Assembly (NCBI GenBank): GCA_963764715.1
Contig: CAVXTP010000004.1
Span: forward strand, 1-29,595
Source: an uncultured Acidobacteriota bacterium
Lineage (GTDB): Bacteria; Acidobacteriota; Thermoanaerobaculia; UBA5066; Gp7-AA6
Direction: 5' to 3'
Length of the DNA: 29,595 nucleotides
Shown here: positions 4,539-29,595 of the stretch, in pieces
Numbering within the stretch: position 1 is the stretch's first letter
How the letters are laid out: each line of letters starts with the position of its first letter
Notes under the pieces: generated by a model
Told to the model about the DNA's origin: nothing
The model's input: only the letters and a program-made list of their open reading frames with translations
The model's database searches: none
Position numbers and translations under genes: made by a program

Positions 4539-4540
4539 CC

Positions 4541-5077
4541 CTACTCCTCCACGTCCATGACGACCCGCGGCCCGAGCCTGGTCAGGAAGGCCCAGGTCTC
4601 GTCGTGATCGAACTTCGGGTCGCGCGCCTCGATGCAGAGGAAAAAGCGGTCGCGCGAGGCGAGCGCGAAGCGCGGGGAGTTGAAGACGGGGTGGTAGGGC
4701 ATCGGGAGGCCGTTCAAGGCCAGCATGCCGAGGACGGCCGAGAATGCGGCGAAGAGGATCGTCGTCTCGAAGGTCGGGACGATGAAGGCCGGCGCGCTGT
4801 GGAAGGGCTTGCCGCCGATGTTGAGCGGGTAGGCGATGACGGAGGTCCAGTAGCACAGGGCGTAGCCGCAGAGCCCGCCGAGGATGCCGCCGCCGAGCAC
4901 GACCGCCGGGAGCTTCCGGTCGTGGATGTCGAGCGCCTCGGTCAGCGCCTCGATCGGGTACGGCGAGTAGGCGTCGAGCTTCGTGAACCCGGCCTCGCGG
5001 ACCGTCCGCGTGGCCTCGACGAGGTCGTGCGGATTCTCGAACTCGGCCATCAGGCCGTAGAGCTTGGCGGCGGTCAT
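4541..5077 (-). CDS. actD: ActD (DUF3341-type) subunit
   Basis: Start MTAAKLYGLMAEF at ATG 5077 overlapping the actC stop; DAYSPYP, YPLNIGGKP and FETTILF motifs. Confidence 0.9.
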   Translation of the reverse strand: MTAAKLYGLMAEFENPHDLVEATRTVREAGFTKLDAYSPYPIEALTEALDIHDRKLPAVVLGGGILGGLCGYALCYWTSVIAYPLNIGGKPFHSAPAFIVPTFETTILFAAFSAVLGMLALNGLPMPYHPVFNSPRFALASRDRFFLCIEARDPKFDHDETWAFLTRLGPRVVMDVEE

Positions 5078-9479: not shown

Positions 9480-10135
9480 CGGTGACACGTCGTGCAATCC
9501 GTCAACTCCATCGGGGGGCGGATACGATAATCCGTCACGAGCTTCGCGCCGATCTCCTCCTGCCGGCCGGCCGGAACGTAACCCATCGTGAAGACCTGGT
9601 CGCGCGGCCGCAGGAACTTCGCGGGATCGCGGTGGCACTCGAGGCACCACGACATCTGGAGGGTCGGGTGCTGGGAGACGAGCGGCATACGGTCGATGCG
9701 GCCGTGGCAGGTCTCGCACCCGACGCCCTTGGCCACGTGGATCGAGTGGTTGAAGTAGACGTAGTCGGGCAGGTCGTAGACCTTGACCCACTCGATCGAG
9801 CGGTTGGTCCGCCAGCTCTCCCGGACGGGCTCGAGCTCGGGGGACTGAGACCAGATCTGGGAGTGGCAGTTCATGCAGGTCTTCGTCGGGGGGATGTTGG
9901 CGAAGGCGGCCCGCTCGACGGTCGTGTGGCAGTAGCGGCAGTCGATGCCCATGGCCCCGGCGTGGTGCTGGTGGGAGAACTGGACCGGCTGGACCCGGGC
10001 GACCCCCTGGAGGGTGGTGTACGGCGACCGGTTCAGGGCGTCGAAGAGCCAGAGGAGCAGGCCGAGGAAGAAGACGGCCCCGAAAACGGACACACGCGAC
10101 GCCGTGTTCGTGCTGCGGTGGAAGATCTGGGCCAT
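9476..10135 (-). CDS. actA: ActA pentaheme cytochrome c
   Basis: Start MAQIFHRS at 10135; one TM helix; five CxxCH motifs (CRYCH, CMNCH, CETCH, CLECH, CTTCH). Confidence 0.93.
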   Translation of the reverse strand: MAQIFHRSTNTASRVSVFGAVFFLGLLLWLFDALNRSPYTTLQGVARVQPVQFSHQHHAGAMGIDCRYCHTTVERAAFANIPPTKTCMNCHSQIWSQSPELEPVRESWRTNRSIEWVKVYDLPDYVYFNHSIHVAKGVGCETCHGRIDRMPLVSQHPTLQMSWCLECHRDPAKFLRPRDQVFTMGYVPAGRQEEIGAKLVTDYRIRPPMELTDCTTCHR

Positions 10136-10222
10136 GACAGCTGGCCGGGAGCATAAATCAACCCGCTTCAGGGCTGGAAGAAGGAGCCAAGAAAGAGCAT
10201 AGAATTTCCCAAGAGGTTCCCA

Positions 10223-11326
10223 ATGAGACGACTCGGTGCGCTCGCCGCCGTTTCGCTCCTGTTCGCCCTTCCCGCGCCCGGGGAGACCCTCCCCGAGCTC
10301 TTCCACAAAGCCAAGGCCCAGGTCAAAGGGGAATCCTGGGCGGAGGCCCTCAAAACTCTCGCGGCCCTCGAGGGCGAGGCGGAAAGGCCCGGCGCCGAGC
10401 GCGCCCGGCAGCAGCTCGCCGCTCCGCTGGCGTTCTATCGCGGCGTCTGCGAGGCGAACCTCGGAAGAGCGGACGAGGCCCGGATGGACTTCGCGGCGTT
10501 CCTCTCGATCGAGCCCGACGCGTCGATGGACCCGTCCATGTACTCGAAGAAAGCGGTCGCCGCATTCCAGGCGGCGCGCAAGAACGCGGCCCCGCCGGTC
10601 GAAGCCGACGACCGGCCGTCGGTGTTCCAGTCGTTCCAGGAGTTCAAGCTCCCGCGCAACTCCGGCGAGCGCGTGGACGCGAGCTGGCCCGACGGGCCGG
10701 TCCGGTGGATCATGACGGCGGACGAGCGGCGGCGCTGGCAGGACCTGACGCCCGGCGCGGACTGGCAGGAGTTCGTGGACCGGTTCTGGGAGGCCCGCAA
10801 CCCGCAGTCGGGCAACGCGGACAACCCCTTCAGGACGGCCTTCGATCGCCGCGTGGCCTTCGCCGACGCCCACTTCATTCAGGCCGAGGGGACGCGCGGC
10901 AGCATGACGGACCGCGGAATGGTGTTCGTTCTCCTCGGTCCGCCGACCTACGTCGGCCGGACGCCGATCCGGACGGGTGAAGACCGCAACGACGCGACCG
11001 GCCTGTCGACGGTCGGCTCCCGCGCCTCGGCCTACGCCCAGCGCGCGCTGACGTCGGCCGGGGAGCCCGCGGGGTCGACGGGCGCGCTCGCCGTGGACGC
11101 CGTTTTCGGCCCGGGGTCCCAGGCGCCGGACGCGAACCCGAGCTGGCGCGAGACCTGGCACTACCGAAGGGAGCTGCTGCCCAGGTCCCTCTCCTACCAG
11201 CAGCTCGATGTCGACTTCATCACCCGCAGGGGCTATGGCGTCGGCGTGCTGCAGCGCGAGCCCGCGGCTCTGGCGGCGCTCGACGCGGCCCGGGCCCGCT
11301 TCGATTTTCGCGGAGAGACGCCGTAG
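10223..11326 (+). CDS. Secreted GWxTD-domain protein, paralogue 1
   Basis: Signal peptide, TPR-like helical N-domain, then FVDRFWEARNP...FDRRVAFAD..F...GSMTDRGMVFVLLGPP (GWxTD-family pattern with W replaced by S) and W-H-Y. Confidence 0.85.
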   Translation: MRRLGALAAVSLLFALPAPGETLPELFHKAKAQVKGESWAEALKTLAALEGEAERPGAERARQQLAAPLAFYRGVCEANLGRADEARMDFAAFLSIEPDASMDPSMYSKKAVAAFQAARKNAAPPVEADDRPSVFQSFQEFKLPRNSGERVDASWPDGPVRWIMTADERRRWQDLTPGADWQEFVDRFWEARNPQSGNADNPFRTAFDRRVAFADAHFIQAEGTRGSMTDRGMVFVLLGPPTYVGRTPIRTGEDRNDATGLSTVGSRASAYAQRALTSAGEPAGSTGALAVDAVFGPGSQAPDANPSWRETWHYRRELLPRSLSYQQLDVDFITRRGYGVGVLQREPAALAALDAARARFDFRGETP

Positions 11327-11396
11327 CTGGCATCCGGGATCGAGCGGCGACGGGGCGGGCCCCGATGGACTTAAGATCGCACCCCGGAGGCCCGCC

Positions 11397-12440
11397 ATGA
11401 AGCGAATCGGCGTGTTTTTCGCCGCCGCGCTGCTCTGCTCGGCATCTCCCGCGCAGACTCTCCCCGAGCTCTTCCAGAAGGCCAAGGCACAGATCAAGGG
11501 CGAGTCCTGGACCGAGGCGCTCGAGACCCTCGACGCCCTCGAGGCGGAGGCCGCCCGGCCCGGCAACGAGGCGGCGCGGCAGCAGCTCGCGGCGCCGACC
11601 GCGTTCTACCGGGGCGTCTGCGAGGCGAACCTCGGCAACGCGGAAAGGGCCCAGGCCGACTTCGCGACTTTCCTGCGGGAGAATCCGGGCTCGACGATCG
11701 ACGAGGTGATGTACTCGAAGAAGGCGGTCGCGGCCTTCGAGGCCGCGCGAAAGAACGTCGCCTCCGAGGCGGCGAGCGGGGACGCGTCGGGCGGCCCGCT
11801 CTCCCTCTTCCAGAGGTTCGAGCAGTTCAAGTCTCCGCCCGACATGGGCGAGAAGCCGGACGATCGGTGGGCCGACGGACCGGTGAAGTGGATCATGACG
11901 GCCGAGGAGAAGGCGGCCTGGGCGGGGCTGACGGGCGGAGCCGAGCGCGCCGAGTTCGTCGAGAAGTTCTGGGCGAGGCGCAACCCGAAGCCCGGTTCCG
12001 AGGACAACATCGCGCGCACCGGCTTCGATCGGCGGGTCGCCTTCGCGGACACCTATTTCCAGCCGGACGAGCGGCGGCGCGGGAGCCTGACGGACGCGGG
12101 GATGGTGTTCATCCTGCTCGGACCGCCGAGCTGGACCGGCCGCAAGCCGATCGTGACGGGCGAGGATCCCACCGACGCGGCCGGCATGTCCGAGGAGTCG
12201 AAGTGGTGGATGGCCAACCGTAATTCGGTCCACATCGACGGCGGTCGGGCCGCCGACACTTCCGGCGCCTTTCGCGAGATCTGGCATTACCGGCGAGAGG
12301 CCTTGCCGAAGGGCGTCTCCGCTTTCCAGGTGAACGTCGTGTTCATCACCAAGAAGGGGTACGGCCGATCCGTTCTCCAGCGCGAGCCCGCGACGCTCGC
12401 CGCCCTCGACGCCGCGCGCCCGGGAAGATCCGGGAGCTAG
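11397..12440 (+). CDS. Secreted GWxTD-domain protein, paralogue 2
   Basis: Start MKRIGVFF after GGAGG; same architecture; motif degenerate (GSLTDAG). Confidence 0.85.
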   Translation: MKRIGVFFAAALLCSASPAQTLPELFQKAKAQIKGESWTEALETLDALEAEAARPGNEAARQQLAAPTAFYRGVCEANLGNAERAQADFATFLRENPGSTIDEVMYSKKAVAAFEAARKNVASEAASGDASGGPLSLFQRFEQFKSPPDMGEKPDDRWADGPVKWIMTAEEKAAWAGLTGGAERAEFVEKFWARRNPKPGSEDNIARTGFDRRVAFADTYFQPDERRRGSLTDAGMVFILLGPPSWTGRKPIVTGEDPTDAAGMSEESKWWMANRNSVHIDGGRAADTSGAFREIWHYRREALPKGVSAFQVNVVFITKKGYGRSVLQREPATLAALDAARPGRSGS

Positions 12441-12493
12441 CTCCTCGCCGCGCGGGCCGCTTCGCCGGGACTAGAATGTGCGGCGGAGCCGCC

Positions 12494-13552
12494 ATGCGAC
12501 GACCCGGAGCCACTTTCGCCGCCCTTCTCTTTGCCGCTTCGATTTCCGCGCAGCCCCTTCCCGAGCTGTTCCAGAAAGCCAAGGCCCAGGTCAAGGGCGA
12601 GTCCTGGACCGAGGCGCTCAAGACCCTCGACGCCCTCGAGGCGGAGGCCGCCCGGCCCGGCAACGAGGCGGCGCAGCAGCAGCTCGCGGCCCCGACCGCG
12701 TTCTACCGCGGCGTCTGCGAGGCGAACCTCGGGAACGCGGAGAAGGCGCAGGACGATTTTTCGACGTTTCTCGAGCTCCAGCCGGGCGCGTCGATGGACC
12801 CCTCGATGTACTCGAAGAAGGCGATCGCCGCCTTCCAGGCCGCGCGCAAGGGCCAGGCCGCGCCGCCCGCGGGCAACGAATCCGACGGCCGGCCCGCGAT
12901 GTTCGTGGCGTTCCAGGAATTCAAGCTGCCGCCGAACGCCGGCGAGCCGGTCAACGAGAAGTGGGGAGACGGCCCGGTGAAATGGATCATGACCGACGAG
13001 GAGAAACGAGCGTGGGCGGAGCTTTCCTCGGGAGGCGAGTGGCAGGAGTTCGTCGACAAGTTCTGGGAAGCCCGCAATCCCCGCCCGGGCAACCCGGACA
13101 ACTCCTATGAGACGACTTTCGACCGCCGGGTCGCCTTCGCGGATTCGCGCTTCGCGGAGGCCGAGGGGACCCGGGGCAGCATGACGGACCGCGGGATGGT
13201 TTTCGTTCTCCTCGGGCCGCCGACCTACGTCGGACGCAAGCCGATCCGGCCCGGCGACGACGTGTCCGATCCGGCCGGAGCCTCGCGGGGTGGCAGCTAC
13301 AACATGGGCGAACGGGGCCTCTTCGTCGTGACCGGCGTGGGCGCCCGGGCGCCGAACAGCGATGCGAGCAACTTCCGGGAGGTCTGGCACTACCGCCGCG
13401 AGCTCCTCCCGAAGGGCGTGGGTTACCAGCAGGTCGACATCGAGTTCATCACCAAGAAGGGGTTTGGCGTCAACGTCATCCAGCGCGACCCGCCCACGCT
13501 GGCGACCCTCCAGGCCGCGGCGAAGCCGAAGGCGGACCTTTCGAAACCATGA
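12494..13552 (+). CDS. Secreted GWxTD-domain protein, paralogue 3
   Basis: Start MRRPGATF after GGAG; GSMTDRGMVFVLLGPP. Confidence 0.85.
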   Translation: MRRPGATFAALLFAASISAQPLPELFQKAKAQVKGESWTEALKTLDALEAEAARPGNEAAQQQLAAPTAFYRGVCEANLGNAEKAQDDFSTFLELQPGASMDPSMYSKKAIAAFQAARKGQAAPPAGNESDGRPAMFVAFQEFKLPPNAGEPVNEKWGDGPVKWIMTDEEKRAWAELSSGGEWQEFVDKFWEARNPRPGNPDNSYETTFDRRVAFADSRFAEAEGTRGSMTDRGMVFVLLGPPTYVGRKPIRPGDDVSDPAGASRGGSYNMGERGLFVVTGVGARAPNSDASNFREVWHYRRELLPKGVGYQQVDIEFITKKGFGVNVIQRDPPTLATLQAAAKPKADLSKP

Positions 13553-13607
13553 AGACCTGAACACGGCCGTCTCGAACGGACGTAAGATTCCGACCCGGAG
13601 GCCCGCC

Positions 13608-14717
13608 ATGAAGCGTATCGGCGCCGTTTTCGCCGCGCTCCTGCTTCTTTCCGCCGCATCCACCGCCCAGACCCTCCCCGAGCTCTTCCAGAAAGCCAAA
13701 GCCCAGGTGAAGGGCGAGTCCTGGGCCGAAGCGCTCAAGACGCTGGAAAAGCTGGACGCCGAGGCTTCGCAGCCCGGCAACGAGGCCGCCCGACAGCAGC
13801 TCGCCGCGCCGACGGCGTTCTACCGGGGGGTCTGCGAGGCCAACCTCGGCCAGGCCGACAAGGCGAAGGCGGACTTCGCGACGTTTCTCGAGATCCAGCC
13901 CAACGCCTCGCTGGACCCGTCGATGTACTCGAAGAAGGCGATCGCCGCCTTCGACGCAGCGCGCGCGAGTATCGCTCCGCCGCCGGATCCGGGCGACGGC
14001 CGCCCCTCGATGTTCGCCCGCTTCCAGGAGTTCAAGCTTCCGCCGAACTCCGGCGAGCAGATCAACGACGCGTGGGCCAGCGGTCCCATCAAGTGGATCC
14101 TGACGCCCGAGGAGAAGCGGGCCTGGGCGAGCCTGACGGCCGGCGGCGAGCGGCAGGAGTTCGTCGACAAGTTCTGGGAGACGCGCAACCCGCAGCCCGG
14201 CAATCCCGACAATTCGTACCGCACGGCGTTCGAGCGTCGGGTCGCGTTCGCCGACGCGAACTTCGTGCAGGCCGAAGGGACGCGCGGCAGCATGACCGAC
14301 CGCGGCATGGTGTTCGTGCTGCTCGGCCCGCCGACCTACGTCGGGCGCAAGCCGATCCGCACGGGCGACGACTCGAGCGAGGCCGCCGGGCTATCGACGG
14401 TCGAGTCGTCCGACCAGCGCAACGCGATGACGGCCGCCGTCGCTTCGTCCCCCTCCGGGAGGATCTCGTCGGCCCAGGCCGCCGCCATCTCGGACAAGTT
14501 CTCCGGCCCGGGGACGCAGGCGATCGACTCGAACGCCAACTGGCGCGAGGTCTGGCACTACCGCCGGGAGCTGCTCCCCAGGGGCGTGGGCTACCAGCAG
14601 GTCGACGTCGACTTCATCACGAAGAAGGGTTACGGCGTGAACATCATGCAGCGCGACACGCCGACCCTGAACACGCTCGCCGCGGCGGCGAAGCCTCCGG
14701 CGAAGCCGAGCTCCTAG
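13608..14717 (+). CDS. Secreted GWxTD-domain protein, paralogue 4
   Basis: Start MKRIGAVF after GGAGG; GSMTDRGMVFVLLGPP. Confidence 0.85.
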   Translation: MKRIGAVFAALLLLSAASTAQTLPELFQKAKAQVKGESWAEALKTLEKLDAEASQPGNEAARQQLAAPTAFYRGVCEANLGQADKAKADFATFLEIQPNASLDPSMYSKKAIAAFDAARASIAPPPDPGDGRPSMFARFQEFKLPPNSGEQINDAWASGPIKWILTPEEKRAWASLTAGGERQEFVDKFWETRNPQPGNPDNSYRTAFERRVAFADANFVQAEGTRGSMTDRGMVFVLLGPPTYVGRKPIRTGDDSSEAAGLSTVESSDQRNAMTAAVASSPSGRISSAQAAAISDKFSGPGTQAIDSNANWREVWHYRRELLPRGVGYQQVDVDFITKKGYGVNIMQRDTPTLNTLAAAAKPPAKPSS

Positions 14718-15884: not shown

Positions 15885-16023
15885 AGGGCGCCCGCGAGGG
15901 GCGCCCCTACGACCGGGGGCGCGAAGATCGGAAAGGTCCGAAAGACGTGCTCCGGGGGTGCGAAAGACCGGAAAGGTCCGAAAGACGTGCTCCGGTCGTA
16001 GGGGCGGGGCTTGTCCCCGCCCT
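15885..16023. repeat. Inverted pair of GTAG-type REP palindromes
   Basis: Minus strand GTAGGGGCGCCCCTCGCGGGCGCCCT (15885-15910) and plus strand GTAGGGGCGGGGCTTGTCCCCGCCCT (15998-16023). A perfect 14-bp inverted repeat GCCCCTACGACCGG / CCGGTCGTAGGGGC lies at 15903-15916 and 15992-16005. Confidence 0.75.
15921..15995 (+). repeat. Two tandem copies (40-bp period) inside the REP pair
   Basis: CGGAAAGGTCCGAAAGACGTGCTCCGG is identical at 15929-15955 and 15969-15995. Confidence 0.9.
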
Positions 16024-16068
16024 CGGGGATTTCGCCGAGTGAGGCATCAAAACACGACCTGGGTTCCA

Positions 16069-16276: not shown

Positions 16277-17029
16277 ATGCGCCTTCGCTCCTCGATCGCC
16301 GCCTTCGGGTTCCTGGCCGCGGCCGCTTCTCCGCTCCTCGCCGACGAGCTCGGCCACGCCCGGCCAAAGAGCTGGGGCACGACCTCTCAGACGGTCCTGA
16401 CGCTCGGCCCCTGCGACGCCGCGCAGCGGGACATGACGAATCCCTTCCAGGTCTTCGGTTGCGATTTCCTGACCGCGAAACAGCCCAACACGTTCAACTC
16501 GGCGGCTGCCGGGTTCCCGCTGCACCTGCCGGAAGGCGCACTGCTCGAGGAGGTCGACGTCTCCTACTACGACACCGTCAGCGGGTCCGAGCCGTTCGTC
16601 AAACTGATTCGCAAGGGCCCCGGACCGACGGACCAGATCCTTAACGATAACCTCCCGGTGTTCGAGTCGGGGGACAACCTGGCGGTCTTCGTCCTGAGTC
16701 CGCCGCGCGAAATCCACAACGACAACTTCATCTATGCCCTGAACCTGGACCTGGACACCGTCGACGCCACGCACTACGAGGGGCTCTACAACGTCTCGAT
16801 CCGCTACCGCCTCCAGGTCAGCCCGCCGCCCGAAACGGCGACGTTCGGGGACGTTCCGGCCGACCATCCGTTCTTCCAGTTCGTGGAAGCGCTGGCCGCG
16901 TCGGGGATCACCGCGGGCTGCGGGAACGGGAACTTCTGCCCCAACACACCGCTGACGCGGGGCCAGATGGCGGTGTTCCTGGCGAAGGCGCTCGGGCTGC
17001 ACTGGCCGAACTCTCAGTTGCCGAACTGA
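16277..17029 (+). CDS. Secreted protein with single C-terminal S-layer homology (SLH) domain (SLH-1)
   Basis: GGAGG RBS; signal peptide; C-terminal TFGDVPADHPFFQFVEALAASGITAGCGNGNFCPNTPLTRGQMAVFLAKALGL. Confidence 0.9.
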   Translation: MRLRSSIAAFGFLAAAASPLLADELGHARPKSWGTTSQTVLTLGPCDAAQRDMTNPFQVFGCDFLTAKQPNTFNSAAAGFPLHLPEGALLEEVDVSYYDTVSGSEPFVKLIRKGPGPTDQILNDNLPVFESGDNLAVFVLSPPREIHNDNFIYALNLDLDTVDATHYEGLYNVSIRYRLQVSPPPETATFGDVPADHPFFQFVEALAASGITAGCGNGNFCPNTPLTRGQMAVFLAKALGLHWPNSQLPN

Positions 17030-17081
17030 GGGGTCAGTCCTGATTCGTTGATTTCGCCCGCGGCGGGGAATCCCGCCCCGT
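17030..17081 (+). repeat. RAYT-associated site (variant) plus degenerate hairpin
   Basis: GGGGTCAGTCCTGATTCGTTGATTTCG (17030-17056) starts on the base after the SLH-1 stop; 25 bp identical to 16069-16093; followed by GCGGCGGGGAATCCCGCCCCGT. Confidence 0.88.
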
Positions 17082-18143: not shown

Positions 18144-20936
<2,793 letters not shown>

Positions 20937-21000: not shown

Positions 21001-21036
21001 ACCTTTAGATCGACAGGCCGGCGAAACTCGACACGG

Positions 21037-21269
21037 CTCGCGGATCAGCGCTTCGTCGGACGCGACGCGGGCTTCCAGGCGAGGTGGAAGTGGTTCGTCA
21101 TCAGGCAGTAGGCGAGCAGGCGGACCCCGAACCGGTCGCGGCAACCGGCCAGCCGCTTCAGGAAGTCCTCGCGGTCCCGATCGCCGCTGAAGATGTCGCG
21201 ACGCTCGTTTCCGCGTGCGGTCACGTGGTAGACGGCCCCGGGGAACTCCAGTCGCGGCGGTCGCGGCAT
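21037..21269 (-). pseudogene. Internally deleted RAYT transposase
   Basis: First ~64 codons near-identical to 28583..29557 (through NHFHLA), joined out of frame to the C-terminal RLEARVASDEALIR. The deletion is 664 bp relative to the intact copy, at a GGCG microhomology (21078-21081; 28702 and 29366 in the intact gene). Confidence 0.9.
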
Positions 21270-21319
21270 ATCAAGGCGGCTCTCTCCTTGAATTGTCGCG
21301 AGCCGGTTGCTCGCACCTC

Positions 21320-21346
21320 CGAAATCAGCAAATCAAGACTGACCCC
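21320..21346 (-). repeat. RAYT-associated site, upstream end of the deleted RAYT
   Basis: CGAAATCAGCAAATCAAGACTGACCCC is the reverse complement of the consensus, 50 bp upstream of the ATG. Confidence 0.92.
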
Positions 21347-21372
21347 TCGTTGCCAGACCCCTCGCTGCACTT

Positions 21373-22292: not shown

Positions 22293-22430
22293 GGGGTCAG
22301 TCCTGATTTGCTAAGGGAATGGGGTCAGTCTTGATTTGCAGCAGAGGGCGGGGTGGGTCAGTCTTGAAATGCTGATTTCGGAGGGGCTGGTGCCCCTTGG
22401 GCGGGAAATCAGCAAATCAAGACTGACCCC
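22293..22430. repeat. Stack of four RAYT-associated sites
   Basis: Plus-strand copies at 22293-22312 and 22321-22339 (both truncated) and 22355-22380; minus-strand copy at 22405-22430; small hairpin AGGGGC-TGGT-GCCCCT between the last two. Confidence 0.92.
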
Positions 22431-22580
22431 AGGAGACTGGAAGCGCTCGCGATGGTGCGCGACCCGCTCGAGCTAGGCCTCGCGGTCCCGATCGTCCCGA
22501 AAGATCGCGCGGCGCTCGTTGCCGCGGGCGGTAACGTGGTACAGGGCCCCCGGGAACTCGAGTCGCGGTGGTCGTGGCAT
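22431..22580 (-). pseudogene. 5' fragment of a more diverged RAYT
   Basis: MPRPPRLEFPGALYHVTARGNERRAIFRDDRDREA*LERVAHHRERF; in-frame TAG at 22473-22475; ends at the site at 22430. Confidence 0.88.
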
Positions 22581-22662
22581 CTCCGCTCCGAACGACCGCG
22601 AACGATGCGGGACCTCCACTCAGAGATTGTCGCGAGACGGCTGGAAGCGGAGAGCGCGCCGG

Positions 22663-22689
22663 CGAAGTCAGGAAATCAAGACTGACCCC
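22663..22689 (-). repeat. RAYT-associated site upstream of the RAYT fragment
   Basis: Reverse complement reads GGGGTCAGTCTTGATTTCCTGACTTCG. Confidence 0.9.
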
Positions 22690-22702
22690 TCAGCACCCTC
22701 CG

Positions 22703-23320
22703 TTACCACTGTAGGCCCAGCGCCTTGGAGAGGAAGACGGCCATCTGGCCGCGTGTGACGGGGCTGTTGGGACAGAAGAGGCCGGAGCCGCACCCGCCAG
22801 TGATCCCCGCCGCCACGAGCGCCTCGATGTACTGGAAGAACGGATTGCTCGTGGGTACGTCGCCGAACGTCGGGGTTTCCGGAGCCGGAGACACCTGAAG
22901 CTTGTAACCGAGAGAGACGCCACCGAGCTGGAGGGTGTCGTCGCTGACGCCCCACCCGGCCTCGATGAGAATGCTCGAGCTGAGGTTGTCCACCGTATAC
23001 GGCGGAAGATCGAATAAGACAGCGGCACACCCTTGGCCGGCGATGGACGTGTAAGTGTGATACGGGTTCGAATCGCACTCCGAAAAGTGGTTGCAGATGT
23101 AGACGTTGAAGGTGAGCCGACCGCTTCCGCTTCCATTGAAGTCGCAATAGCGGTACTGGATAGCCGACACGAGAGCGCCCGCGGGCAGACGGGGGCTCGC
23201 GAAAAGGCGGGGTTGGCCACCAGTGACGTAACGGCGGTAGGCGTAGTTGTTTAGCGCAGGGTTCCAGGTACTCGTATAGTCCGTGCAGCCCGAGGCGCAT
23301 GCGGTGTCCGGATCGAAGTC
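22703..23320 (-). pseudogene. 5'-truncated SLH protein (SLH-3), close paralogue of SLH-2
   Basis: Aligns with SLH-2 from DFDPDTACASGCTDYTSTWNPAL onward; no signal peptide. The upstream part of ORF 22703..23461 is read-through of the site and the RAYT remnant. Confidence 0.85.
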
Positions 23321-23338
23321 GAGCCTGGGCAAGGGAAT

Positions 23339-23450
23339 GGGGTCAGTCTTGATTTGCTGAGTTGGCGGAGGAGGCGGTGGCTCGGGTTGGATTTGAGGCG
23401 GCGGCCGAGGCGGTCGAACTGCCGGATGAACGCGTCGTCGGACGTGAGGC
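23339..23450 (-). pseudogene. RAYT 3'-end remnant including its terminal site (site on + strand, 23339-23365)
   Basis: GGGGTCAGTCTTGATTTGCTGAGTTGG is the same variant as at 28581. 23400-23450 aligns with ~28640-28692 (LTSDDAFIRQFDRL versus LASDEALIRQLDRL). Confidence 0.85.
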
Positions 23451-23672
23451 ATCAGTGTCATCGCCAGACAGCTTTGGGGCCAATCTGGATTCCTGTATTG
23501 CTCGCGGACCGGCCTCGGTACGCAGTTCTCCGGCAGAACCGCAAACGCGGTTCGCCTCTAGCTGGTGAAGACAGGAGCACGCGGTCAAGCCTGGCATCCT
23601 GACCGCATTCTTCACAAGAACTGATCCAGTTGAATCAGGCCAGCCCAGCGGGGAGGCGCAACACTCACGCAG

Positions 23673-24032
23673 ATGAAGCTGAAGATGAATCCGTCTCGAT
23701 GGCCGCTTCTCTCGTCGTTGCTGGCGCTGAGTTGCAGTTCTCATGTCCTGACTGCCCCTACCGGCCCGCTCTGTGGAACCTGCGACCTTGGCTCGCCAGC
23801 TGCCCGGAAGGCTGGCAAGATCGTAATCACCGAGGACATGGCGGCGGTGTCGGGCTGCACGCTAATGGGAACGGTCGGCGGTTGGGAAGACTTAGACAAA
23901 AAGAATGGTGCCTACGCCCTCGCGGTTAAGAACCACGCTTACGACCACGGTGCCGACCCCATGATTCGGGTTCTCTTTGTCAACGGTGGAGATGACGAGG
24001 CTTACCTCTGCCCATCCGCCCCTACGAATTGA
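23673..24032 (+). CDS. Hypothetical exported protein, possible lipoprotein
   Basis: 119-aa ORF with a hydrophobic N-terminus ending LLALSC; visibly more A/T-rich than the core genes; stop 31 bp before a site. Confidence 0.55.
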   Translation: MKLKMNPSRWPLLSSLLALSCSSHVLTAPTGPLCGTCDLGSPAARKAGKIVITEDMAAVSGCTLMGTVGGWEDLDKKNGAYALAVKNHAYDHGADPMIRVLFVNGGDDEAYLCPSAPTN

Positions 24033-24063
24033 CTCCAGGGCTTAGCCGGACCTCCTCCGGGAC

Positions 24064-24199
24064 GGGGTCAGTCTTGATTTGCTGCTTCGGGTTGTTTAGC
24101 TCGCGGCTTAGACTCGGCGAATCCCTGAGTCCAGAAGAATGGGAGGTTCAGGGAATGGGGTCGAGGGGAAATGGGGTCAGTCCTGATTTGCTGATTTCG
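24064..24199 (+). repeat. RAYT-associated sites
   Basis: Copies at 24064-24090 and 24173-24199; head-only remnant AGGGAATGGGGTC at 24150-24162. Confidence 0.9.
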
Positions 24200-24827
24200 G
24201 GTTGAGCCGGGGTGCCCCTGTCAGTAATCGCTCCACTGAAGTCCCAGGGCCTTCGCGAGAAACACCGCCATCTGCCGCCGCGTCAACGGAGCATCGGGAC
24301 AATAGTTGCCGCCAGCGCACCCGGCGGTGATGCCCGACGAATAGAGCGCCTCGATGAACTGGAAGGCGGGATCCGACGTCGGCACGTCGCCGAAGGTTGG
24401 CGTGGCCGGAGCCGGCGAGACGTCGAGCTGATAGCTGACGATGGCGCCGCCCAGAACGACAGACCCGTCTCCGGCGCCAAAGGCCAGCGAGAGCCCGTAG
24501 ATTTTGTGGTAGTTGTCGATCCGCAAGCTCAGCGTGTTGTCTGCCACGAAGCTACAGCCGTTGTTCGTTGAATCGACCTCGACGACATCCGTGCAGTTCA
24601 GCGCCTGGTTGTCGCACTCCCGAAGAGTCAGATACAGGTGACTCGCGGGATTGTTGTCGCAATAGTCGAGCTCGACGCGCCGAACGACGGATCCTCCTGG
24701 CAGATGAAGCGCCGCCGCCCAGAGGGACCCGTTCACCGACGGATAGCGTGTGAGCCCGCCCGCGGACTTCCAGTCTCCGGCGAGACCCGACTGGAGAGGG
24801 ACGAACTCCATCGCCGCGACGCGCACG
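24172..24827 (+). repeat. 656-bp direct duplication of 27743-28398
   Basis: Constant offset of 3571 bp; I find one mismatch (24494 C versus 28065 T, synonymous Gly). Confidence 0.92.
24221..24827 (-). pseudogene. 5'-truncated copy of SLH-5 (SLH-4)
   Basis: Protein identical to SLH-5 from RVAAMEF onward; lacks the first 43 codons, including the signal peptide. Confidence 0.88.
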
Positions 24828-24844
24828 GCGGTTAGCAGAGGAAT

Positions 24845-25017
24845 GGGGTCAGTCTTGATTTGCTGATTTCAGGGAGTTGCGGAGGCGGGCGATCTGCGAA
24901 TACGAAATGCGGCCGAAAGGCGGCTGCTCCGCCGGGCCATGTATGGCCGCCAGGGGATGCGCGTGACGGTTTTGGGGTCAGTCCTGATTGGCCGATTTGG
25001 AATGGGTAGGGTCAGTC
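24845..25017 (+). repeat. RAYT-associated sites
   Basis: Copies at 24845-24870 and 24974-24998; partial GGAATGGGTAGGGTCAGTC at 24999-25017. Confidence 0.88.
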
Positions 25018-25262
25018 GAGAAATGTCAGGTTCGAGATTCCCGCTGGGAGCGTCGTGAATCAGGTCACGGTGGGGGATCCAGGGGCCGCCAGGCAAGACG
25101 GGAGGGTCCTAAATCTGAGAGGCCCAGTGCCGATCTGAAATGCTCGACGGCGGAGGGAAGGTGTGACAGATCGAGCGGCGCACGTCCCCTGTCATCGCCT
25201 GAGCCCCGGGGCACCCAGTCAAGCTCCAATTGCCCCATTCGGTTCGTCCAGGCTCCCGGAAC

Positions 25263-25288
25263 GGGGTCAATCTCGATTTGCTGATTCG
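25263..25288 (+). repeat. RAYT-associated site (degenerate)
   Basis: GGGGTCAATCTCGATTTGCTGATTCG preceded by GGAAC. Confidence 0.8.
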
Positions 25289-25398
25289 CCCGCTCGGATC
25301 GGCGAGTTCTCGGATGGCGCTTTCGATCTGGCTGCGCAGAGCCGGGTCGGTGTCGAGCGGATGTTCGAGGAGTCTGACCGGTCCGACGAAGGAACCCT

Positions 25399-27459
25399 TC
25401 AGATCGAAAGGCCCGGATCGCCCTCAACGACCTTCTGCCGCAGCACCGGCCGTTCGCCCGCCTTCCAGAGCGACGCCGTGTGGACGACGCGGTAGCGAAG
25501 AGGACCGCCGTCGGGACGATCGCTTCGCGTGATCGGGCGGGGGATACAGACGAACTCGGTCCGCATTTCATCGCCGGTGAGCCGCACCGTCGCATAGCCG
25601 TGACCGCCCAGGTCCACGAATTCGAGGTGGGGGGCGAGACTCGGATTGGAAAGGGCGTGAGCGCTCTTCAGGTCGAAGGTCTTCGCGTATTCGAGGCACG
25701 AGCGGACGCCGTGCTTCAAGAGCATGTTGTGGGTCCATTCGGGCTGACCCGCGGGCCCCTCGACCAGGAACAGCGCACGGAGGGGATCGTCCTTGGGATG
25801 GCGGTGCTCGAGGGCCTCCATCGTCCCGTGGCTGATCAGCGAGGCGCCGACGAAACTGAGCCCGACCGGCTCGTACTTGGCGGGTGGCAAGAGAGGGGCG
25901 GCATAGCCGGCCCAGAAGCTGTGACGGTCGCCCGACACGATCGCGAATCCGGTGATCTTCGAATCACGGACGAGGTCATAGATTTCGCCACGCTCGTGGT
26001 AGGCGCTGCCAAAATCCCAGCTGCCGATCTGCGCGAAGGTGTCGGCCGGCCACTTCTGCTTGGTCAGCCCATCCGGAAGGTTCTGGGGGTCGGCCCGCAT
26101 GTCGAGGGCACCCAACGAATTGCCCCAGATCTTCCAGGTTGCCCCGGACCGACGGAGCTGGTCCATGAACCACTTCTTCTGCACGGCCCCGAGGATCGTG
26201 CGCGGCGGTGAATCCTTTCGCGGATTCGGGATGGTGACCTCGCCGAAACTGAGCTCGGCGGGCGGTTTGCCGCCGTTGGAGGTGCGGCCGGCGTCGAGCG
26301 CGATCATCGCCGGCTCCGAGAACATCCCGTTGAAAGCCGGATCGTAAATCTTCTCCACGCCCTCCACATCGGTCGCGTCGGGGCCGGAGAAGGTGCGTTG
26401 GTCGGTGAGAATGAGATCGAGGTTTCGGCCGTATCGCAAAGACCGATACACGATCAGGCTGTTGATGGCCTTCAGATTGTTGGGCTCGATCCCGAGGCCA
26501 CTGTCGTCCCACTTTTCGATCGGCACATTTTTCACCGCCACCGTGCCGAACGTGTCGAACGATCCGCTCGGCGCCTTCACGCGCGCGGGGATGTACTCGA
26601 ACCATGCCTGGTTGGCGGCGACCTTGATCGTCTGGCCCGGCCGCGGCTCGCCCCCTGCCTGCTGGATGCTCTGCCGGCCCTGCCAGGAGAACTCGTGGTT
26701 GTCCCAGATGGCGACGAACGGCCAACGCGCCCGCGCGTCCTGCAGGTCGGGATCGGCCAGGTAGCCCTTGTAGACGACGCGATAGCCCTCGAGCGTCAGC
26801 GGGTAGTGGAATTTGCCGGTTTGACCGCCATCGGGAATCCGGCCGACGTCGTAGATCGTGCGGTCGTACACCGTCGCCAGCTCGTCCGGATATTGGACGA
26901 CCTCGTAGATGAAATCGCCGAGGTGGAGAACGAAACCGAGTTGATCGGCGGGCGCCGCACGCTCATCCTCGAAGATCATCCGGCGATAGCCGTTGAGCTT
27001 GCCTTCATTGAGGCTCTGGCAGCTCACGAAGGCGAAACTGACCGGCCGCGGATCGTTCGAGAGCGGCGCGGTGATCGTCCGGCCGACCCGGCTGCCGTTT
27101 CCCTCTCCATCGGTGAAGCGGTACCAGTAGACGCGCGCTGGCTTGAGATGACCGACCAGCACGCGCGTCGTCCAATCCGATTCCGGGCAGACCGGCGCGG
27201 ACGCTTTCGCGACCACCCGCCGGAACGCTTGATCCTCAGCGACCTCGACCGTGAGCACACGCCGCCCGCCCGACTCGAACGGCCGCCGAGTCCAGAGGAT
27301 GACGCTCTCCGGATCGGGATCGCCGGACGCGACGCCGTGGGGATAGAGGTCGCGACGCTCATGCCACGGGGTGGTGGAAGCTCGAGCCGGCCCGCCCCAC
27401 GCCAGCGAGGCGCCCATGGCTGCGGCCGTTTTCAGAAAGGATCGGCGGCTAATCGTCAT
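25399..27459 (-). CDS. phoD: Tat-exported alkaline phosphatase D family protein
   Basis: SRRSFLK Tat signal; GVASGDP, LWTR, FVSCQ, HLGDFIYE, WDNHE, SGDRH motifs. ATG 27459 fits the GGAG at 27467-27470 better than GTG 27465. Confidence 0.93.
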   Translation of the reverse strand: MTISRRSFLKTAAAMGASLAWGGPARASTTPWHERRDLYPHGVASGDPDPESVILWTRRPFESGGRRVLTVEVAEDQAFRRVVAKASAPVCPESDWTTRVLVGHLKPARVYWYRFTDGEGNGSRVGRTITAPLSNDPRPVSFAFVSCQSLNEGKLNGYRRMIFEDERAAPADQLGFVLHLGDFIYEVVQYPDELATVYDRTIYDVGRIPDGGQTGKFHYPLTLEGYRVVYKGYLADPDLQDARARWPFVAIWDNHEFSWQGRQSIQQAGGEPRPGQTIKVAANQAWFEYIPARVKAPSGSFDTFGTVAVKNVPIEKWDDSGLGIEPNNLKAINSLIVYRSLRYGRNLDLILTDQRTFSGPDATDVEGVEKIYDPAFNGMFSEPAMIALDAGRTSNGGKPPAELSFGEVTIPNPRKDSPPRTILGAVQKKWFMDQLRRSGATWKIWGNSLGALDMRADPQNLPDGLTKQKWPADTFAQIGSWDFGSAYHERGEIYDLVRDSKITGFAIVSGDRHSFWAGYAAPLLPPAKYEPVGLSFVGASLISHGTMEALEHRHPKDDPLRALFLVEGPAGQPEWTHNMLLKHGVRSCLEYAKTFDLKSAHALSNPSLAPHLEFVDLGGHGYATVRLTGDEMRTEFVCIPRPITRSDRPDGGPLRYRVVHTASLWKAGERPVLRQKVVEGDPGLSI

Positions 27460-27562
27460 CGTCACACTCCATCATCAGGGCTGTCGTTGGCGTCGCTCGA
27501 GGGCGCGGGCGCGAACGCCTGCTGAGACAAGTACGATCCCCGCTCGGAGGGGTTTTGGTAAG

Positions 27563-27770
27563 GGGGTCAGTACTGATTTTGCTGACTTCGGGGCCGCGAC
27601 CGGGCAGCCAAGAAGTTCCCGATGACCGCCGCCGGCGGCGTGCCGCGACGTCTTCCCGATCAGCTTCTCGAACCGCGTGAAGGAACGGGGTCAGTCTCGA
27701 TTTGCTGGTTCAGGGAATGGGTAGGGTCAGTCTAACGGGGGCTGGGGTCAGTCCTGATTTGCTGATTTCG
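27563..27770 (+). repeat. Cluster of RAYT-associated sites
   Basis: Copies at 27563-27590, 27687-27707 and 27744-27770; partial AGGGAATGGGTAGGGTCAGTCT at 27712-27733. Confidence 0.9.
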
Positions 27771-27791
27771 GGTTGAGCCGGGGTGCCCCTG

Positions 27792-28526
27792 TCAGTAATC
27801 GCTCCACTGAAGTCCCAGGGCCTTCGCGAGAAACACCGCCATCTGCCGCCGCGTCAACGGAGCATCGGGACAATAGTTGCCGCCAGCGCACCCGGCGGTG
27901 ATGCCCGACGAATAGAGCGCCTCGATGAACTGGAAGGCGGGATCCGACGTCGGCACGTCGCCGAAGGTTGGCGTGGCCGGAGCCGGCGAGACGTCGAGCT
28001 GATAGCTGACGATGGCGCCGCCCAGAACGACAGACCCGTCTCCGGCGCCAAAGGCCAGCGAGAGTCCGTAGATTTTGTGGTAGTTGTCGATCCGCAAGCT
28101 CAGCGTGTTGTCTGCCACGAAGCTACAGCCGTTGTTCGTTGAATCGACCTCGACGACATCCGTGCAGTTCAGCGCCTGGTTGTCGCACTCCCGAAGAGTC
28201 AGATACAGGTGACTCGCGGGATTGTTGTCGCAATAGTCGAGCTCGACGCGCCGAACGACGGATCCTCCTGGCAGATGAAGCGCCGCCGCCCAGAGGGACC
28301 CGTTCACCGACGGATAGCGTGTGAGCCCGCCCGCGGACTTCCAGTCTCCGGCGAGACCCGACTGGAGAGGGACGAACTCCATCGCCGCGACGCGCACGTG
28401 CGTGAGATTGGAAGTGCCGAAGTCCGCGGCCTTTGGATCCTGCACGACCCCGGATGGCTGCGCCGACATCTTGACGGCAAGACAACACAGCATTGCAAAA
28501 AGCGATCCGAGGCGCATGGTTCGCAT
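27792..28526 (-). CDS. Secreted single-SLH-domain protein (SLH-5)
   Basis: AGGAG RBS; signal peptide; LPGGSVVRRVELDYCDNN; C-terminal TFGDVPTSDPAFQFIEAL...TRRQMAVFLAKALGL. Confidence 0.9.
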   Translation of the reverse strand: MRTMRLGSLFAMLCCLAVKMSAQPSGVVQDPKAADFGTSNLTHVRVAAMEFVPLQSGLAGDWKSAGGLTRYPSVNGSLWAAALHLPGGSVVRRVELDYCDNNPASHLYLTLRECDNQALNCTDVVEVDSTNNGCSFVADNTLSLRIDNYHKIYGLSLAFGAGDGSVVLGGAIVSYQLDVSPAPATPTFGDVPTSDPAFQFIEALYSSGITAGCAGGNYCPDAPLTRRQMAVFLAKALGLQWSDY

Positions 28527-28580
28527 TGCATCTCCTCAGCGTGGAATTGGAATCCGTCATTCTATGAAAAACGGCCGACC

Positions 28581-28605
28581 GGTCAGTCTTGATTTGCTGA
28601 GTTGG
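28581..28605 (+). repeat. RAYT-associated site overlapping the RAYT stop codon
   Basis: GGTCAGTCTTGATTTGCTGAGTTGG; its reverse complement encodes NSANQD-TGA. Confidence 0.92.
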
Positions 28606-29557
28606 CCGGGAGGGCGTCAGCCGGGTGCGCGGACCTTAGGTGGCGGACGAGGCGGTCGAGCTGGCGGATCAATGCTTCGTCGGACGCGAGGCGGGCTTCC
28701 AGGCGCGCGAGAGGGCGGGTGAAGCTCGAGTCGTCGCGATGGAGCCGGCGGGCCATCCGGCGCACCGAGATGCGCCCGAAGCGGCGGCCGACGTAAGCGG
28801 CGAGGCACCGCGCGAACGCGACCTCGCCTCCTCGACCGGGTCCGGCGAGAGCGGCAGCGCTGATCCCGGTCTCGTGCGCGACGGCCTCCAGGACGCGGTC
28901 CTCGGTCAGGCCGAGGATCGGTGGATCGAGCTCCCCGGCGGCGGCGAATCGCTCGACTGCGAACGCCTCGTCGCCCACGACGGCCTGGGCGATGGCGGGC
29001 AGCTCGTCGGTGGCCGCCAGGCCGTCGACCAGCTCCACGTATCGCGCGACGGCGGCGCGGCGATTCGCGCCGAGCGCGGCCAGGGTCTCGTCGACATCGA
29101 GCCATCTCGGGCCGCGCGCGCGGCGCAGGTGACGGTCGCTCGACCAGGGATAGTCGCAGGCGCGGCGGGTGATCCCGGCACGCACGGGGTTCTGATGGAC
29201 GTAGCGGATGAGAGCCTGAAGGTACCGGTCCTCCTGGACGAGGCGGGACTTGTATCGACCCTGGAACAGATGGCCCACCCGGGCGTACCGGCGGTTGAAG
29301 AGCTGAGCATACGAGGACTGGAGGCAGGCCATGATCCTCGACAGCGGCGTCGCCGCGGTGCGAAGGGCGAGGTGGAAGTGGTTCGTCATCAGGCAGTAGG
29401 CGAGCAGGCGGAACCCGAACCGGTCGCGGCAACCAGCCAGCCGCTTCAGGAAGTCCTCGCGATCCCGATCGCTGCGAAAGATGTCGCGGCGCTCGTTTCC
29501 GCGAGCGGTCACGTGGTAGACGGCCCCGGGGAACTGCAGACGCGGCGGTCGCGGCAT
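28583..29557 (-). CDS. Y1 HUH transposase of the RAYT/TnpA-REP type with DnaA-domain-IV-like C-terminal HTH
   Basis: MPRPPR...YHVTARGN, AYCLMTNHFHL (HUH), GHLFQGRY, RYVHQNP (catalytic Tyr helix), YPWSS; C-terminal VLEAVAHETGIS...ARCLAAYVGRR...ISVRRMARRLHRDDSSF resembles Bac_DnaA_C. Confidence 0.92.
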   Translation of the reverse strand: MPRPPRLQFPGAVYHVTARGNERRDIFRSDRDREDFLKRLAGCRDRFGFRLLAYCLMTNHFHLALRTAATPLSRIMACLQSSYAQLFNRRYARVGHLFQGRYKSRLVQEDRYLQALIRYVHQNPVRAGITRRACDYPWSSDRHLRRARGPRWLDVDETLAALGANRRAAVARYVELVDGLAATDELPAIAQAVVGDEAFAVERFAAAGELDPPILGLTEDRVLEAVAHETGISAAALAGPGRGGEVAFARCLAAYVGRRFGRISVRRMARRLHRDDSSFTRPLARLEARLASDEALIRQLDRLVRHLRSAHPADALPANSANQD

Positions 29558-29595
29558 ATCAAGGCGCCTCTCTCCTTGAATTGTCGCGAGCCGGT

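Follow-up and report, generated by a model that had tools for sequence, protein, structure and literature searches.

TIR-led partial copies of an SLH gene in a TIRtron island of an uncultured Acidobacteriota bacterium

The window analysed here is the entire contig C4 of genome assembly G000, 29,595 nucleotides in length, from an uncultured Acidobacteriota bacterium. The assembly is of the metagenome type, with 26 contigs, 4.36 Mb, and 70% G+C. The subject is a 656-nucleotide repeat that is present once within the intact SLH-5 gene locus (copy B) and once as a truncated fragment (copy A), both in an island of terminal inverted repeats (TIRs) that accompany a RAYT-like transposase gene of the TIRYT type. 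Ordinary concerted evolution, acting on an old pseudogene fragment bounded by TIRs, most likely explains the duplication. The behaviour of the TIR heads across genomes is a more interesting lead than the duplication itself.

The SLH-5 repeat and its TIR island

The intact SLH-5 gene (27792..28526, minus strand) encodes 244 amino acids, with an N-terminal signal-like segment and a C-terminal SLH domain (PF00395). It is one of five SLH paralogues in the window. A gene for a PhoD-like phosphatase (phoD, 25399..27465, minus strand) lies between copies A and B and serves as a positional anchor with the relatives G023, G054, G056, and G007. The TIRYT gene (28583..29557, minus strand) lies beyond SLH-5, and the contig ends inside repeated sequence, 38 nucleotides upstream of the TIRYT start.

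In an ungapped comparison, positions 24172-24827 (copy A) and 27743-28398 (copy B) differ by one mismatch in 656 nucleotides (24494 C, 28065 T). It affects the third base of a codon and leaves the translations 100% identical throughout the shared part, which makes it synonymous. A match of this length is far beyond chance. The same duplication had been reported in a preliminary description of this DNA, and its coordinates were recovered here. No further near-identical copy of the repeat was found in the 4.36-Mb assembly. Copy A (24172..24827, minus strand) is composed of a TIR and the 3’ 606 nucleotides of the SLH-5 gene. Its open reading frame (ORF) remnant (24221-24826, minus strand) lacks codons 1-43, including the signal peptide, and the promoter region, and copy A is therefore a pseudogene fragment. 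Copy B (27743..28398, minus strand) contains the same 656 nucleotides within the intact locus, made up of the 3’ 606 nucleotides of the gene and 49 nucleotides downstream.

The ungapped identity begins at a T one base before a GGGG sequence (24173 in A, 27744 in B) and ends at 24827, inside the gene and 17 nucleotides short of the next GGGG (24845). The right end is thus where the preliminary description had placed it. The left end was given there as the base before GGGG, which holds for the ungapped identity; homology to the B locus resumes 27-36 nucleotides left of the head. With gaps allowed, the BLAST match reaches left to 24145 and 27707 (692 columns, 97.8%). The left flank of A (24145..24162, plus strand) is GGTTCAGGGAATGGGGTC, and its first 15 nucleotides, GGTTCAGGGAATGGG, occur exactly twice in the genome, at 24145 and at 27707 (27707-27721, left of B). 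The only difference between the two loci in the stretch from this 15-mer to the head is a patch of 12 versus 21 nucleotides. The divergence is therefore uneven, with 15 of 15 positions identical, then the patch, then 655 of 656.

The GGGG sequences belong to TIRs. The TIR at the head of copy A (24173..24198, plus strand) is preceded by an A-type 5’ extension, GGGGAAA (24165-24171), shared by partial copies in G023, G054, and G056. The TIR at the head of copy B (27744..27769, plus strand) has a B-type extension, ACGGGGGC, common to G023. To the right of copy A, a 17-nucleotide spacer (24828..24844, plus strand) separates the truncated gene from the next TIR (24845..24870, plus strand), whose head abuts the truncated end. 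The spacer is TIR-tail-like and has AGCAGAGG in common with the tail of the TIR at 22323. A second strain, represented by contigs of sample X3, carries an 8-nucleotide insertion, GAGGAATG, behind position 24837.

The TIR motif GGGGTCAGTCYTGATTTGCTGATTTC occurs at 17 places between 16.0 and 28.6 kb of the window, in units of about 26-35 nucleotides. Its outer end, GGGGTCAG, fits the published TIRYT consensus GGGGWSAS. Because the site is the TIR of a TIRYT, its head is the outer terminus of a transposon-like end and its tail points inward. The 21-nucleotide core, with up to two mismatches, has 22 matches in G000, 16 on the window contig and 6 elsewhere. Outside G000, the motif is present in 15 of 24 genomes from the same genus, always in local clusters, and in none of the 16 from other genera of the order. 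Single TIRs folded as single-stranded DNA gave z-scores of -1.62, +0.21, +0.18, and -0.74 and contained no self-complementary hairpin. One inverted TIR pair (22355..22432) folds as one long hairpin with a REPIN-like form (z = -8.7). In a histogram of breakpoints seeded with 8-mers, which is noisy, consensus similarity mostly begins at the first G of GGGG (96 of 352 seed matches). Breakpoints inside the TIRs are scattered, without a single end point, so the cleavage position cannot be named from them. A solo TIR on contig C12 that seemed to share six bases before the head of B was dropped as a weak gapped blastn match in a G-rich stretch.

TIR heads often lie 0-27 nucleotides after a stop codon, in the direction of the gene (17029-17057, 21321-21372, and 22662-22702 in the window; C6:480320 and C26:73405 elsewhere). 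Examples are seen after SLH-1 (TGAG followed by GGGTCAG) and on C6 (TAG followed by GGGTCAG). SLH-5 is the exception to this arrangement, with a TIR that is inverted relative to the gene.

The TIRYT gene encodes 324 amino acids with a Y1 HUH domain and a candidate DnaA_C-like helix-turn-helix. The protein matches PF01797 (Y1_Tnp) with 53.6 bits (cut-off 23) and NCBIfam NF047646 (REP_Tyr_transpos) with 85.9 bits (cut-off 80). In the TIRtron class the C-terminal helix-turn-helix is related to Bac_DnaA_C, HTH_23, or HTH_28; here the C-terminus gives a weak Bac_DnaA_C match (PF08299, E = 2.3e-6), its 28.0 bits lying below the cut-off of 31.5, and matches the DnaA C-terminal region of TIGR00362 with E = 4.2e-5. 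An HFH motif and the Tyr of RYVHQNP are presumed to be the catalytic residues. They are named by their motifs, because a phmmer search of the protein against PDB sequences gave no match at E ≤ 0.01.

All four intact TIRYT homologues in relatives (G023, G017, G007, and G003) are flanked by inverted TIRs with the heads outward. The 3’ TIR of the window gene (28581-28606) has a worn head (CCGGTCAG). Its 5’ TIR lies beyond the contig end; it is visible in a remnant copy (21312-21348) and in G023. That remnant (21036..21348, minus strand) is an internally deleted TIRYT gene with a TIR, in which 21078-21307 is 95% identical to 29366-29595 and 21036-21081 matches 28660-28705. An N-terminal TIRYT remnant lies at 22464-22583. 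A TIRYT relative with 66% identity was also seen at C6:495318-495704.

The system is a member of the TIRYT (TIRtron) class, which is described but uncharacterised. In the sections at hand of the papers that name the class (Di Nocera et al. 2013, PMC3733652; Quentin et al. 2018, PMC6006769, as TnpA-REP subclass 2.1.2), TIRYTs are RAYT-like proteins with a Bac_DnaA_C-type C-terminus, flanked by TIRs with outer GGGGWSAS, with cases in Acidobacteria. Those sections give the gene, the TIRs, and copy numbers and report no experiment on TIRYTs.

A second gene in the window is truncated just before a TIR head. The SLH-3 gene fragment (22703..23450, minus strand) lacks its 5’ part, and its similarity to SLH-2 stops near 23320. 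It is joined to a TIR head (23339) and a 110-nucleotide 3’ fragment of TIRYT (23341-23450), which is about 80% identical to 28581-28692.

Polar TIR heads and partial SLH-5 copies in relatives

The relatives searched are species representatives, 44 genomes of the genus including G000. With copy A as query, full-length matches were found in G023 and G056 (97%) and in G022 (92%, without the TIR). Further matches are partial and start at query position 1-2. Full-length B copies led by a TIR are present in G000, G023, and G056. The order phoD, TIRs, SLH-5 is kept in G023 and G056, and the TIRYT gene comes next after SLH-5 in G023. Around phoD, G054 is locally 99.3% identical to G000, G056 98.3%, and G023 97.4%.

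Six TIR-led partial copies were identified, of 48 nucleotides (G023_2), 142 (G054_A), 182 (G023_1), 273 (G054_P), 327 (G056_A), and 656 (copy A of G000). Five of the six have an A-type 5’ extension (GGRAAR). The left flanks of the A-type copies all differ, and their right flanks differ among genomes too. The preliminary description had proposed a catalogue of site-anchored duplications, and the copies assembled here, from four species, do have fixed head ends and distal ends that vary from 48 to 656 nucleotides. It had also called the distal end arbitrary. In five of the six partial copies, however, the distal end lies 5-17 nucleotides before a GGGG head. Three of these heads belong to the TIR family and two to a second family (GGGGTCAATCGTGTATTCCTG). 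Given 14 same-strand heads in 13.6 kb, a random point is estimated to fall within 17 nucleotides before a head about 2% of the time, which gives an expected 0.1 or so of six distal ends against the five observed. The supposedly arbitrary end is thus a head-associated joint.

G000, G023, G054, and G056 each have an A-type copy immediately left of the 3’ flank of phoD. The layout to phoD differs in each. In G000, copy A is followed by 24828-25302 and then phoD. In G023, a 48-nucleotide unit is followed by a 47-nucleotide TIR with a TIRYT 3’ piece and then the sequence from 25303 onwards. In G054, 142 nucleotides are joined to 25358. In G056, 327 nucleotides and then 138 nucleotides precede the sequence from 25394 onwards.

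Polarity was measured by extending pairs of TIR sites without gaps from the motif, using 122 sites in 17 stretches (the window and 16 loci of nine relatives). A pair was taken as anchored when it extended at least 45 nucleotides past the tail or at least 25 past the head, which left 16 pairs. Fourteen of the 16 extend 43-653 nucleotides on the tail side and no more than 12 on the head side; the two exceptions are orthologous loci of G000 and G023. Gapped BLAST within the 17 stretches gave 21 repeats (at least 45 nucleotides and 85% identity), and in 12 of these both copies start at a head. Counted by its ungapped core, the A/B pair is a thirteenth; the other eight are not head-associated by the flags of the script. 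Close relatives also differ by rearrangements at TIR heads, where colinearity breaks within about 5-17 nucleotides on the head side. TIR heads are polar boundaries, and truncated ends abut them. The notion in the preliminary description that the site head acts as the fixed end is supported by these pairs and by the outward heads of the four TIRYT homologues, the fixed end being the outer TIR end.

Several details of these loci were noted beside the copies. In G023 (L011, reverse complement, 3719-3840), the 182-nucleotide copy is followed by a 61-nucleotide tandem duplication and then a full TIR. The duplicated unit consists of 45 nucleotides of gene sequence and GCGGGATAGGGGGTCC, which suggests slippage at the head joint. 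In G054 (L068, reverse complement, 11140-11240), a decayed TIR and a TIRYT 3’ remnant follow phoD. G054 is the closest relative (phoD 99.3%); no intact SLH-5 or TIRYT was present in the 16 kb fetched from this genome, which is 55% complete. G007 (L019 = G007:C178, 10818-14085, compared with window 25265-29557) has phoD, 88% identical, adjoining TIRYT in the opposite relative order and with no SLH-5 between. In both G007 and G000 phoD is bracketed by TIRs, and it looks as if it had been shuffled as a TIR-bounded block.

The second clustered family, GGGGTC(A/G)ATCGTGTA(A/T)TCCTGTATTGCC, has seven copies in G000. Six of them lie on the same strand at C6:316709-328304 (12 kb), with tail-side sequence in common. 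In the relatives it was seen in G054 (L068, reverse complement, 6498 and 6592) and G056 (L067, reverse complement, 7466). This family may be the TIR of another TIRYT.

Age and origin of copy A

Copies A and B differ at 1 of 656 positions (0.2%) in G000, at 16 of 328 (4.9%) in G056, and at 8 of 182 (4.4%) in G023. The B copies of different genomes differ at 20-29 of 656 positions (3.0-4.4%). At seven sites, copies A and B of G000 have the same state, which is different from that in G023, G022, and L051. G022 and L051 served as outgroups for base states. L051 comes from a metagenome scan with the gene-specific part of SLH-5, which returned four loci of 31-83% identity; no strain-level SLH-5 locus was among them, and only L051 was used.

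Public sequencing runs were represented by contigs built from their k-mers (X1, X3, and X4), with depths of 2-5x (2.8-4 for X1 and X3). X1 may be the source sample of the window assembly, and X3 is another sample whose contigs are about 1-2% diverged from the window. Contigs of X1 bridge both joints of copy A, the left one (L’ to A, 24124-24447, with A>C at 24314) and the right one (A to Z, 24567-24989, with no difference). An X3 contig bridges the right joint (24648-25130), and an X4 contig bridges the intact B gene at 28398/28399 (28256-28439). The C at 24314 in X1 is also the state of G023_1, G056, and the outgroups. In the X3 contig, the changes T>A (24749) and G>A (24754) match the bases of G023, G022, and in part L051, and two other changes are private. 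Because X3 has the right joint of copy A together with ancestral bases, this joint is older than substitutions by now common to A and B of G000.

The preliminary description had taken the near-identity of A and B as the mark of a recent event. That age does not agree with the A-type copies left of phoD in G023, G054, and G056, with the 4.4-4.9% divergence of A and B in G023 and G056, or with the joint in the diverged strain X3. Copy A is probably old, judging from these comparisons. The two copies, unusually alike in G000 only, were most likely homogenised there by gene conversion. The divergence pattern is that expected of gene conversion, with paralogues closer to each other than orthologues and with patchy divergence (the 12-versus-21-nucleotide patch beside 655 of 656 identical positions).

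An artefact of assembly would also give two alike copies, either by joining two strains across the TIR array or phoD or by polishing that copied one allele to both places; no one genome would then hold two nearly identical copies. The assembly is of the metagenome type in 26 contigs, the 29.6-kb contig ends in a repeat, and a 656-nucleotide repeat is hard for short reads. The A-linked contig of X1 differs from the assembly at 24314, and no single read or contig among the public-run data was seen to hold A and B on one molecule. The bridging X1 contigs, however, reproduce both joints of A as in the window, and the right joint is bridged in a second sample as well. The order phoD, TIRs, SLH-5 was assembled independently in G023 and G056, each with an A-type copy left of phoD. 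Two copies per genome are therefore normal in the group, since G023 and G056 hold a B locus and an A-type copy, and an artefact is very improbable.

The preliminary description had likened the duplication to one-ended, rolling-circle capture. Worked out for the window, a single recent event of this kind would consist of a nick at 27743, copying or displacement of a strand rightwards to 28398, and integration just 5’ of the head at 24845. The single difference in 656 nucleotides, the ungapped start one nucleotide before GGGG, and the end 17 nucleotides before a head would suit such an event. Head-anchored copies recur, and five of six abut a head, as predicted if the site is both origin and target; the HUH motif and Tyr of TIRYT are intact. 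Copy A, however, carries the A-type extension and not that of B, and has this extension in common with partial copies at the same position in three other species. The 4.4-4.9% divergence in relatives, the ancestral bases at the joint in X3, and the homology to the B locus that resumes 27-36 nucleotides left of the head all argue in the same direction. The protein is of the Y1 RAYT type, with no Y2 or helicase partner among the 39 ORFs of the window, and all copies with at least 45 nucleotides of common tail-side sequence lie within the same island. A rolling-circle origin of copy A is not supported, and a recent event of this kind is regarded as quite improbable.

A recent copying event in the G000 lineage could instead have been primed by homology from a resident solo TIR of the A type. 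The 3’ end of a broken or stalled TIR would pair with the 48-nucleotide TIR-plus-tail sequence of B, copy about 608 nucleotides of the gene, and be rejoined illegitimately, with about 10 nucleotides of filler, beside the next TIR. In effect, this would be one-ended gene conversion. In G023_2, a TIR with its tail runs exactly as far as GGGGTGCCCCT, and after it come TGAGGGAAT and the next head, as would be expected of the empty site. That the identity has its left limit inside TIR homology, and that A and B of G000 have seven lineage-specific states in common, would also be explained. An imperfect direct repeat around copy A (24145-24162 and 24830-24850, 18 of 21 columns identical, a score reached by 0 of 500 shuffles) fits this event and would suit a template switch within a tandem TIR array as well. 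Against it stand the A-type copies G054_A, G056_A, and G023_1, which already hold 94-280 nucleotides of the gene. Two of these three have diverged by 4.4-4.9% from the B copy of the same genome, so gene-bearing A-type copies are old. Right flanks vary from genome to genome, which nested deletions fit better than repeated insertions, and X3 has the joint with ancestral bases. This event is thought unlikely, if somewhat less so than the rolling-circle-like one.

The account considered probable, by a modest degree, is that copy A is an old TIR-bounded fragment of SLH-5 in a TIRtron island that is nearly identical to B through conversion and without recent copying. The island holds the TIRYT gene, about 17 TIRs, and decayed copies of TIRYT and SLH genes. 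Copy A would have lain left of phoD before G000, G023, G054, and G056 diverged, and its limits would be the ends of pre-existing homology. On the left this would be a TIR head beside a heterologous patch in a tandem TIR array, and on the right a junction between the gene interior and the 5’ side of the next TIR head, the fragment having been trimmed at TIR heads. Fragment and parent, 2.9 kb apart, would then have been homogenised in G000, giving 655 of 656 identical positions without a recent copy event, in a tract that would run from the heterologous patch beside the head to where the fragment stops.

The joints have a common form, any sequence followed by 5-17 nucleotides and a GGGG head, and TIR heads may act as polar break-and-join points. 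New DNA would attach on the 5’ side of a head, and deletions that start at the head would extend, as a nested series, into the DNA on that side. TIRYT would probably nick one strand 5’ of the head. If, as in HUH enzymes, the 5’ end is kept covalently, any 3’-OH could be joined to it, which would give TIR-led copies as well as nested deletions. The full version of this idea, in which the heads are the working ends of an active TIRYT that makes both the gene copies and the nested deletions by a nick 5’ of the head and joining to any 3’-OH, is put forward tentatively and is rather doubtful. The action of the enzyme may in that case also seed the conversion between A and B.

Several points weigh against the account of an old fragment with polar heads. 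The A-type orthology rests on a 6-7-nucleotide extension and on position, and independent events at a resident A-type TIR are possible, since both left and right flanks differ. G023_2, with 48 nucleotides and no gene sequence, could be an empty site. The direction of the conversion between A and B is not readable from the data, and the consensus of the metagenome-assembled genome may have over-homogenised the two copies. The X1 and X3 contigs are k-mer contigs, in which switching between copies or strains inside the repeat is possible and single differences may be errors. The distal end of G054_A has no head and is a direct junction to 25358. The units of SLH-2 and SLH-3, an older duplication (72% over 878 columns), span a head, so the polarity is limited to younger repeats. 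The predicted cutting and joining of DNA by TIRYT is read from sequence patterns.

Two other arrangements were considered and do not fit. Copy A does not lie inside one split TIR, SLH-3 having an inverted TIR on its other side. A 3571-nucleotide tandem duplication is likewise rejected, phoD and Z having no second copy. An X4 contig was also considered as a full-length cassette in front of such a TIR in another strain. In it, 28427-28580 is linked through 23 other letters to a TIR resembling 24840-24884 (3 mismatches in 45), but its shortness and divergence make it unreliable as evidence. In X1 and X2 there is no cover right of about 26796, and this gap was not used as evidence.

Related systems and other features of the window

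The protein-family scan covered the 39 ORFs of the window, which were called mechanically and overlap heavily in this high-G+C DNA. No Y2_Tnp, helicase, IS91-type, or Helitron-type protein was found among them, and the only HUH protein is of the Y1_Tnp type. No ter-like motif is common to the distal ends of the partial copies. The 39 ORFs include no TnpB, end hairpins of the IS200/IS605 type were absent by folding, and in place of multiple identical full copies there is one intact TIRYT gene with decayed remnants. They include no integrase either, and the TIRs are not attC-like hairpins, so the island is not an integron-like array. GTAG-class REP (repetitive extragenic palindromic) sequences are palindromic units of 20-40 nucleotides with a GTAG tag, dispersed in more than 100 copies; the single TIR unit has no significant hairpin, and 16 of its 22 genome matches are on one contig. 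An Rfam scan of the window matched no family.

The published TIRtrons, as far as the sections at hand describe them (PMC3733652, PMC6006769), agree with the window locus in a Y1 HUH protein of the RAYT type, which in the window has a candidate Bac_DnaA_C-like helix-turn-helix, and in inverted repeats whose outer end fits GGGGWSAS. They agree as well in TIRs that are not self-complementary and form a moderately small family, often as dimers or clusters, and in the presence of the class in Acidobacteria. The same sections describe no polar joints, TIR-led gene fragments, nested truncations, or homogenised copies. Unlike in those accounts, the window TIRs are almost confined to one island.

REP and REPIN sequences with their RAYT proteins (Nunvar 2010, PMC2817692; Bertels & Rainey, PMC3337134) share with the window the enzyme family, through NF047646, the placement of repeats just after stop codons, and, in the one inverted pair, a REPIN-like fold. 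They differ in that the window site is not a palindrome (z from -1.6 to +0.2) and in that its copies number about 22 rather than hundreds and are clustered rather than dispersed.

Other mechanisms offer partial parallels. IS91 and ISCR one-ended transposition and Helitron capture depend on Y2 transposases or Rep-helicases and on read-through of a terminator beyond the element. The likeness lies in HUH chemistry, in one fixed, origin-like end with a variable other end, and in the host DNA carried along. The window enzyme, however, is of the Y1 RAYT type, copy A is probably old, and in the source the variable end comes ahead of any second site, while in the copy it adjoins a head. Adjacent deletions by IS1, Tn3, and Mu-type elements arise by intramolecular transposition, in which DDE transposases act on double-stranded ends. 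They too give a nested series with a fixed terminus, comparable to the 48, 142, 327, and 656 nucleotides left of phoD; in the window the fixed end is the 5’ side of a TIR head in a Y1 HUH system. Gene conversion between nearby paralogues is known as concerted evolution. It would account for 0.2% divergence within G000 against 3.0-4.4% between orthologues and 4.4-4.9% for A and B in relatives, and for tract ends that coincide with the ends of homology. The present case differs in that one partner is a dead fragment and the left boundary coincides with a transposase recognition repeat, which may help to start the exchange between A and B.

TIRYTs are a large branch of the RAYT and IS200 Y1 HUH enzymes. 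The window and its relatives give a testable polarity, in which tail-side DNA travels with the TIR and gene fragments end before heads, and which shows a biochemist which strand and which side of the head matter. If the heads are the ends of an active TIRYT, the locus would be the first natural record of TIRYT or TIRtron action, including gene capture; a recent, enzyme-made copy would have been the first case of gene capture by a RAYT-like protein. The locus is also a caution, in that identity at 655 of 656 positions suggested a fresh event, while relatives and a second strain indicate an old fragment whose near-identity would have been kept by gene conversion or, in part, by assembly consensus.

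Searched against the other 43 genomes of the genus, the flanks of copy A (23451-24171 and 24828-25262) matched over TIR length only, with one exception, a 75% match to the small ORF in G050. In the species representatives the flanks of the A locus are therefore without an orthologue. The small ORF in the window (23673-24032) encodes 119 amino acids with a lipoprotein-like N-terminus and lies in a stretch of lower G+C between TIRs. It has no Pfam or NCBIfam match, and its DNA match (75%) is in G050 only.

A class II (B12-dependent) ribonucleotide reductase gene is located at 18144-20936. It adjoins TIR islands in at least six relatives (G006, G013, G017, G021, G023, G054, and G056; 83-93% identity), and the TIR island is therefore at a fixed chromosomal place. 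Further to the left, 2-10154 (minus strand) holds a cluster of the alternative complex III type (ActD, NrfD-like, Fe-S/molybdopterin-like, and cytochrome c), and 10223-14717 holds four tandem paralogues, each about 1.1 kb long, that carry TPR and GWxTD domains and have a DNA identity of 60-83%. A short G+C-rich hairpin repeat, GGGGCGGGGCTTGTCCCCGCCC-like and unrelated to the TIR, lies at 15986-16030 (and 15885-16023). Matches to it of about 30-40 nucleotides and 90-100% identity are present on most contigs, as a genome-wide REP-like family.

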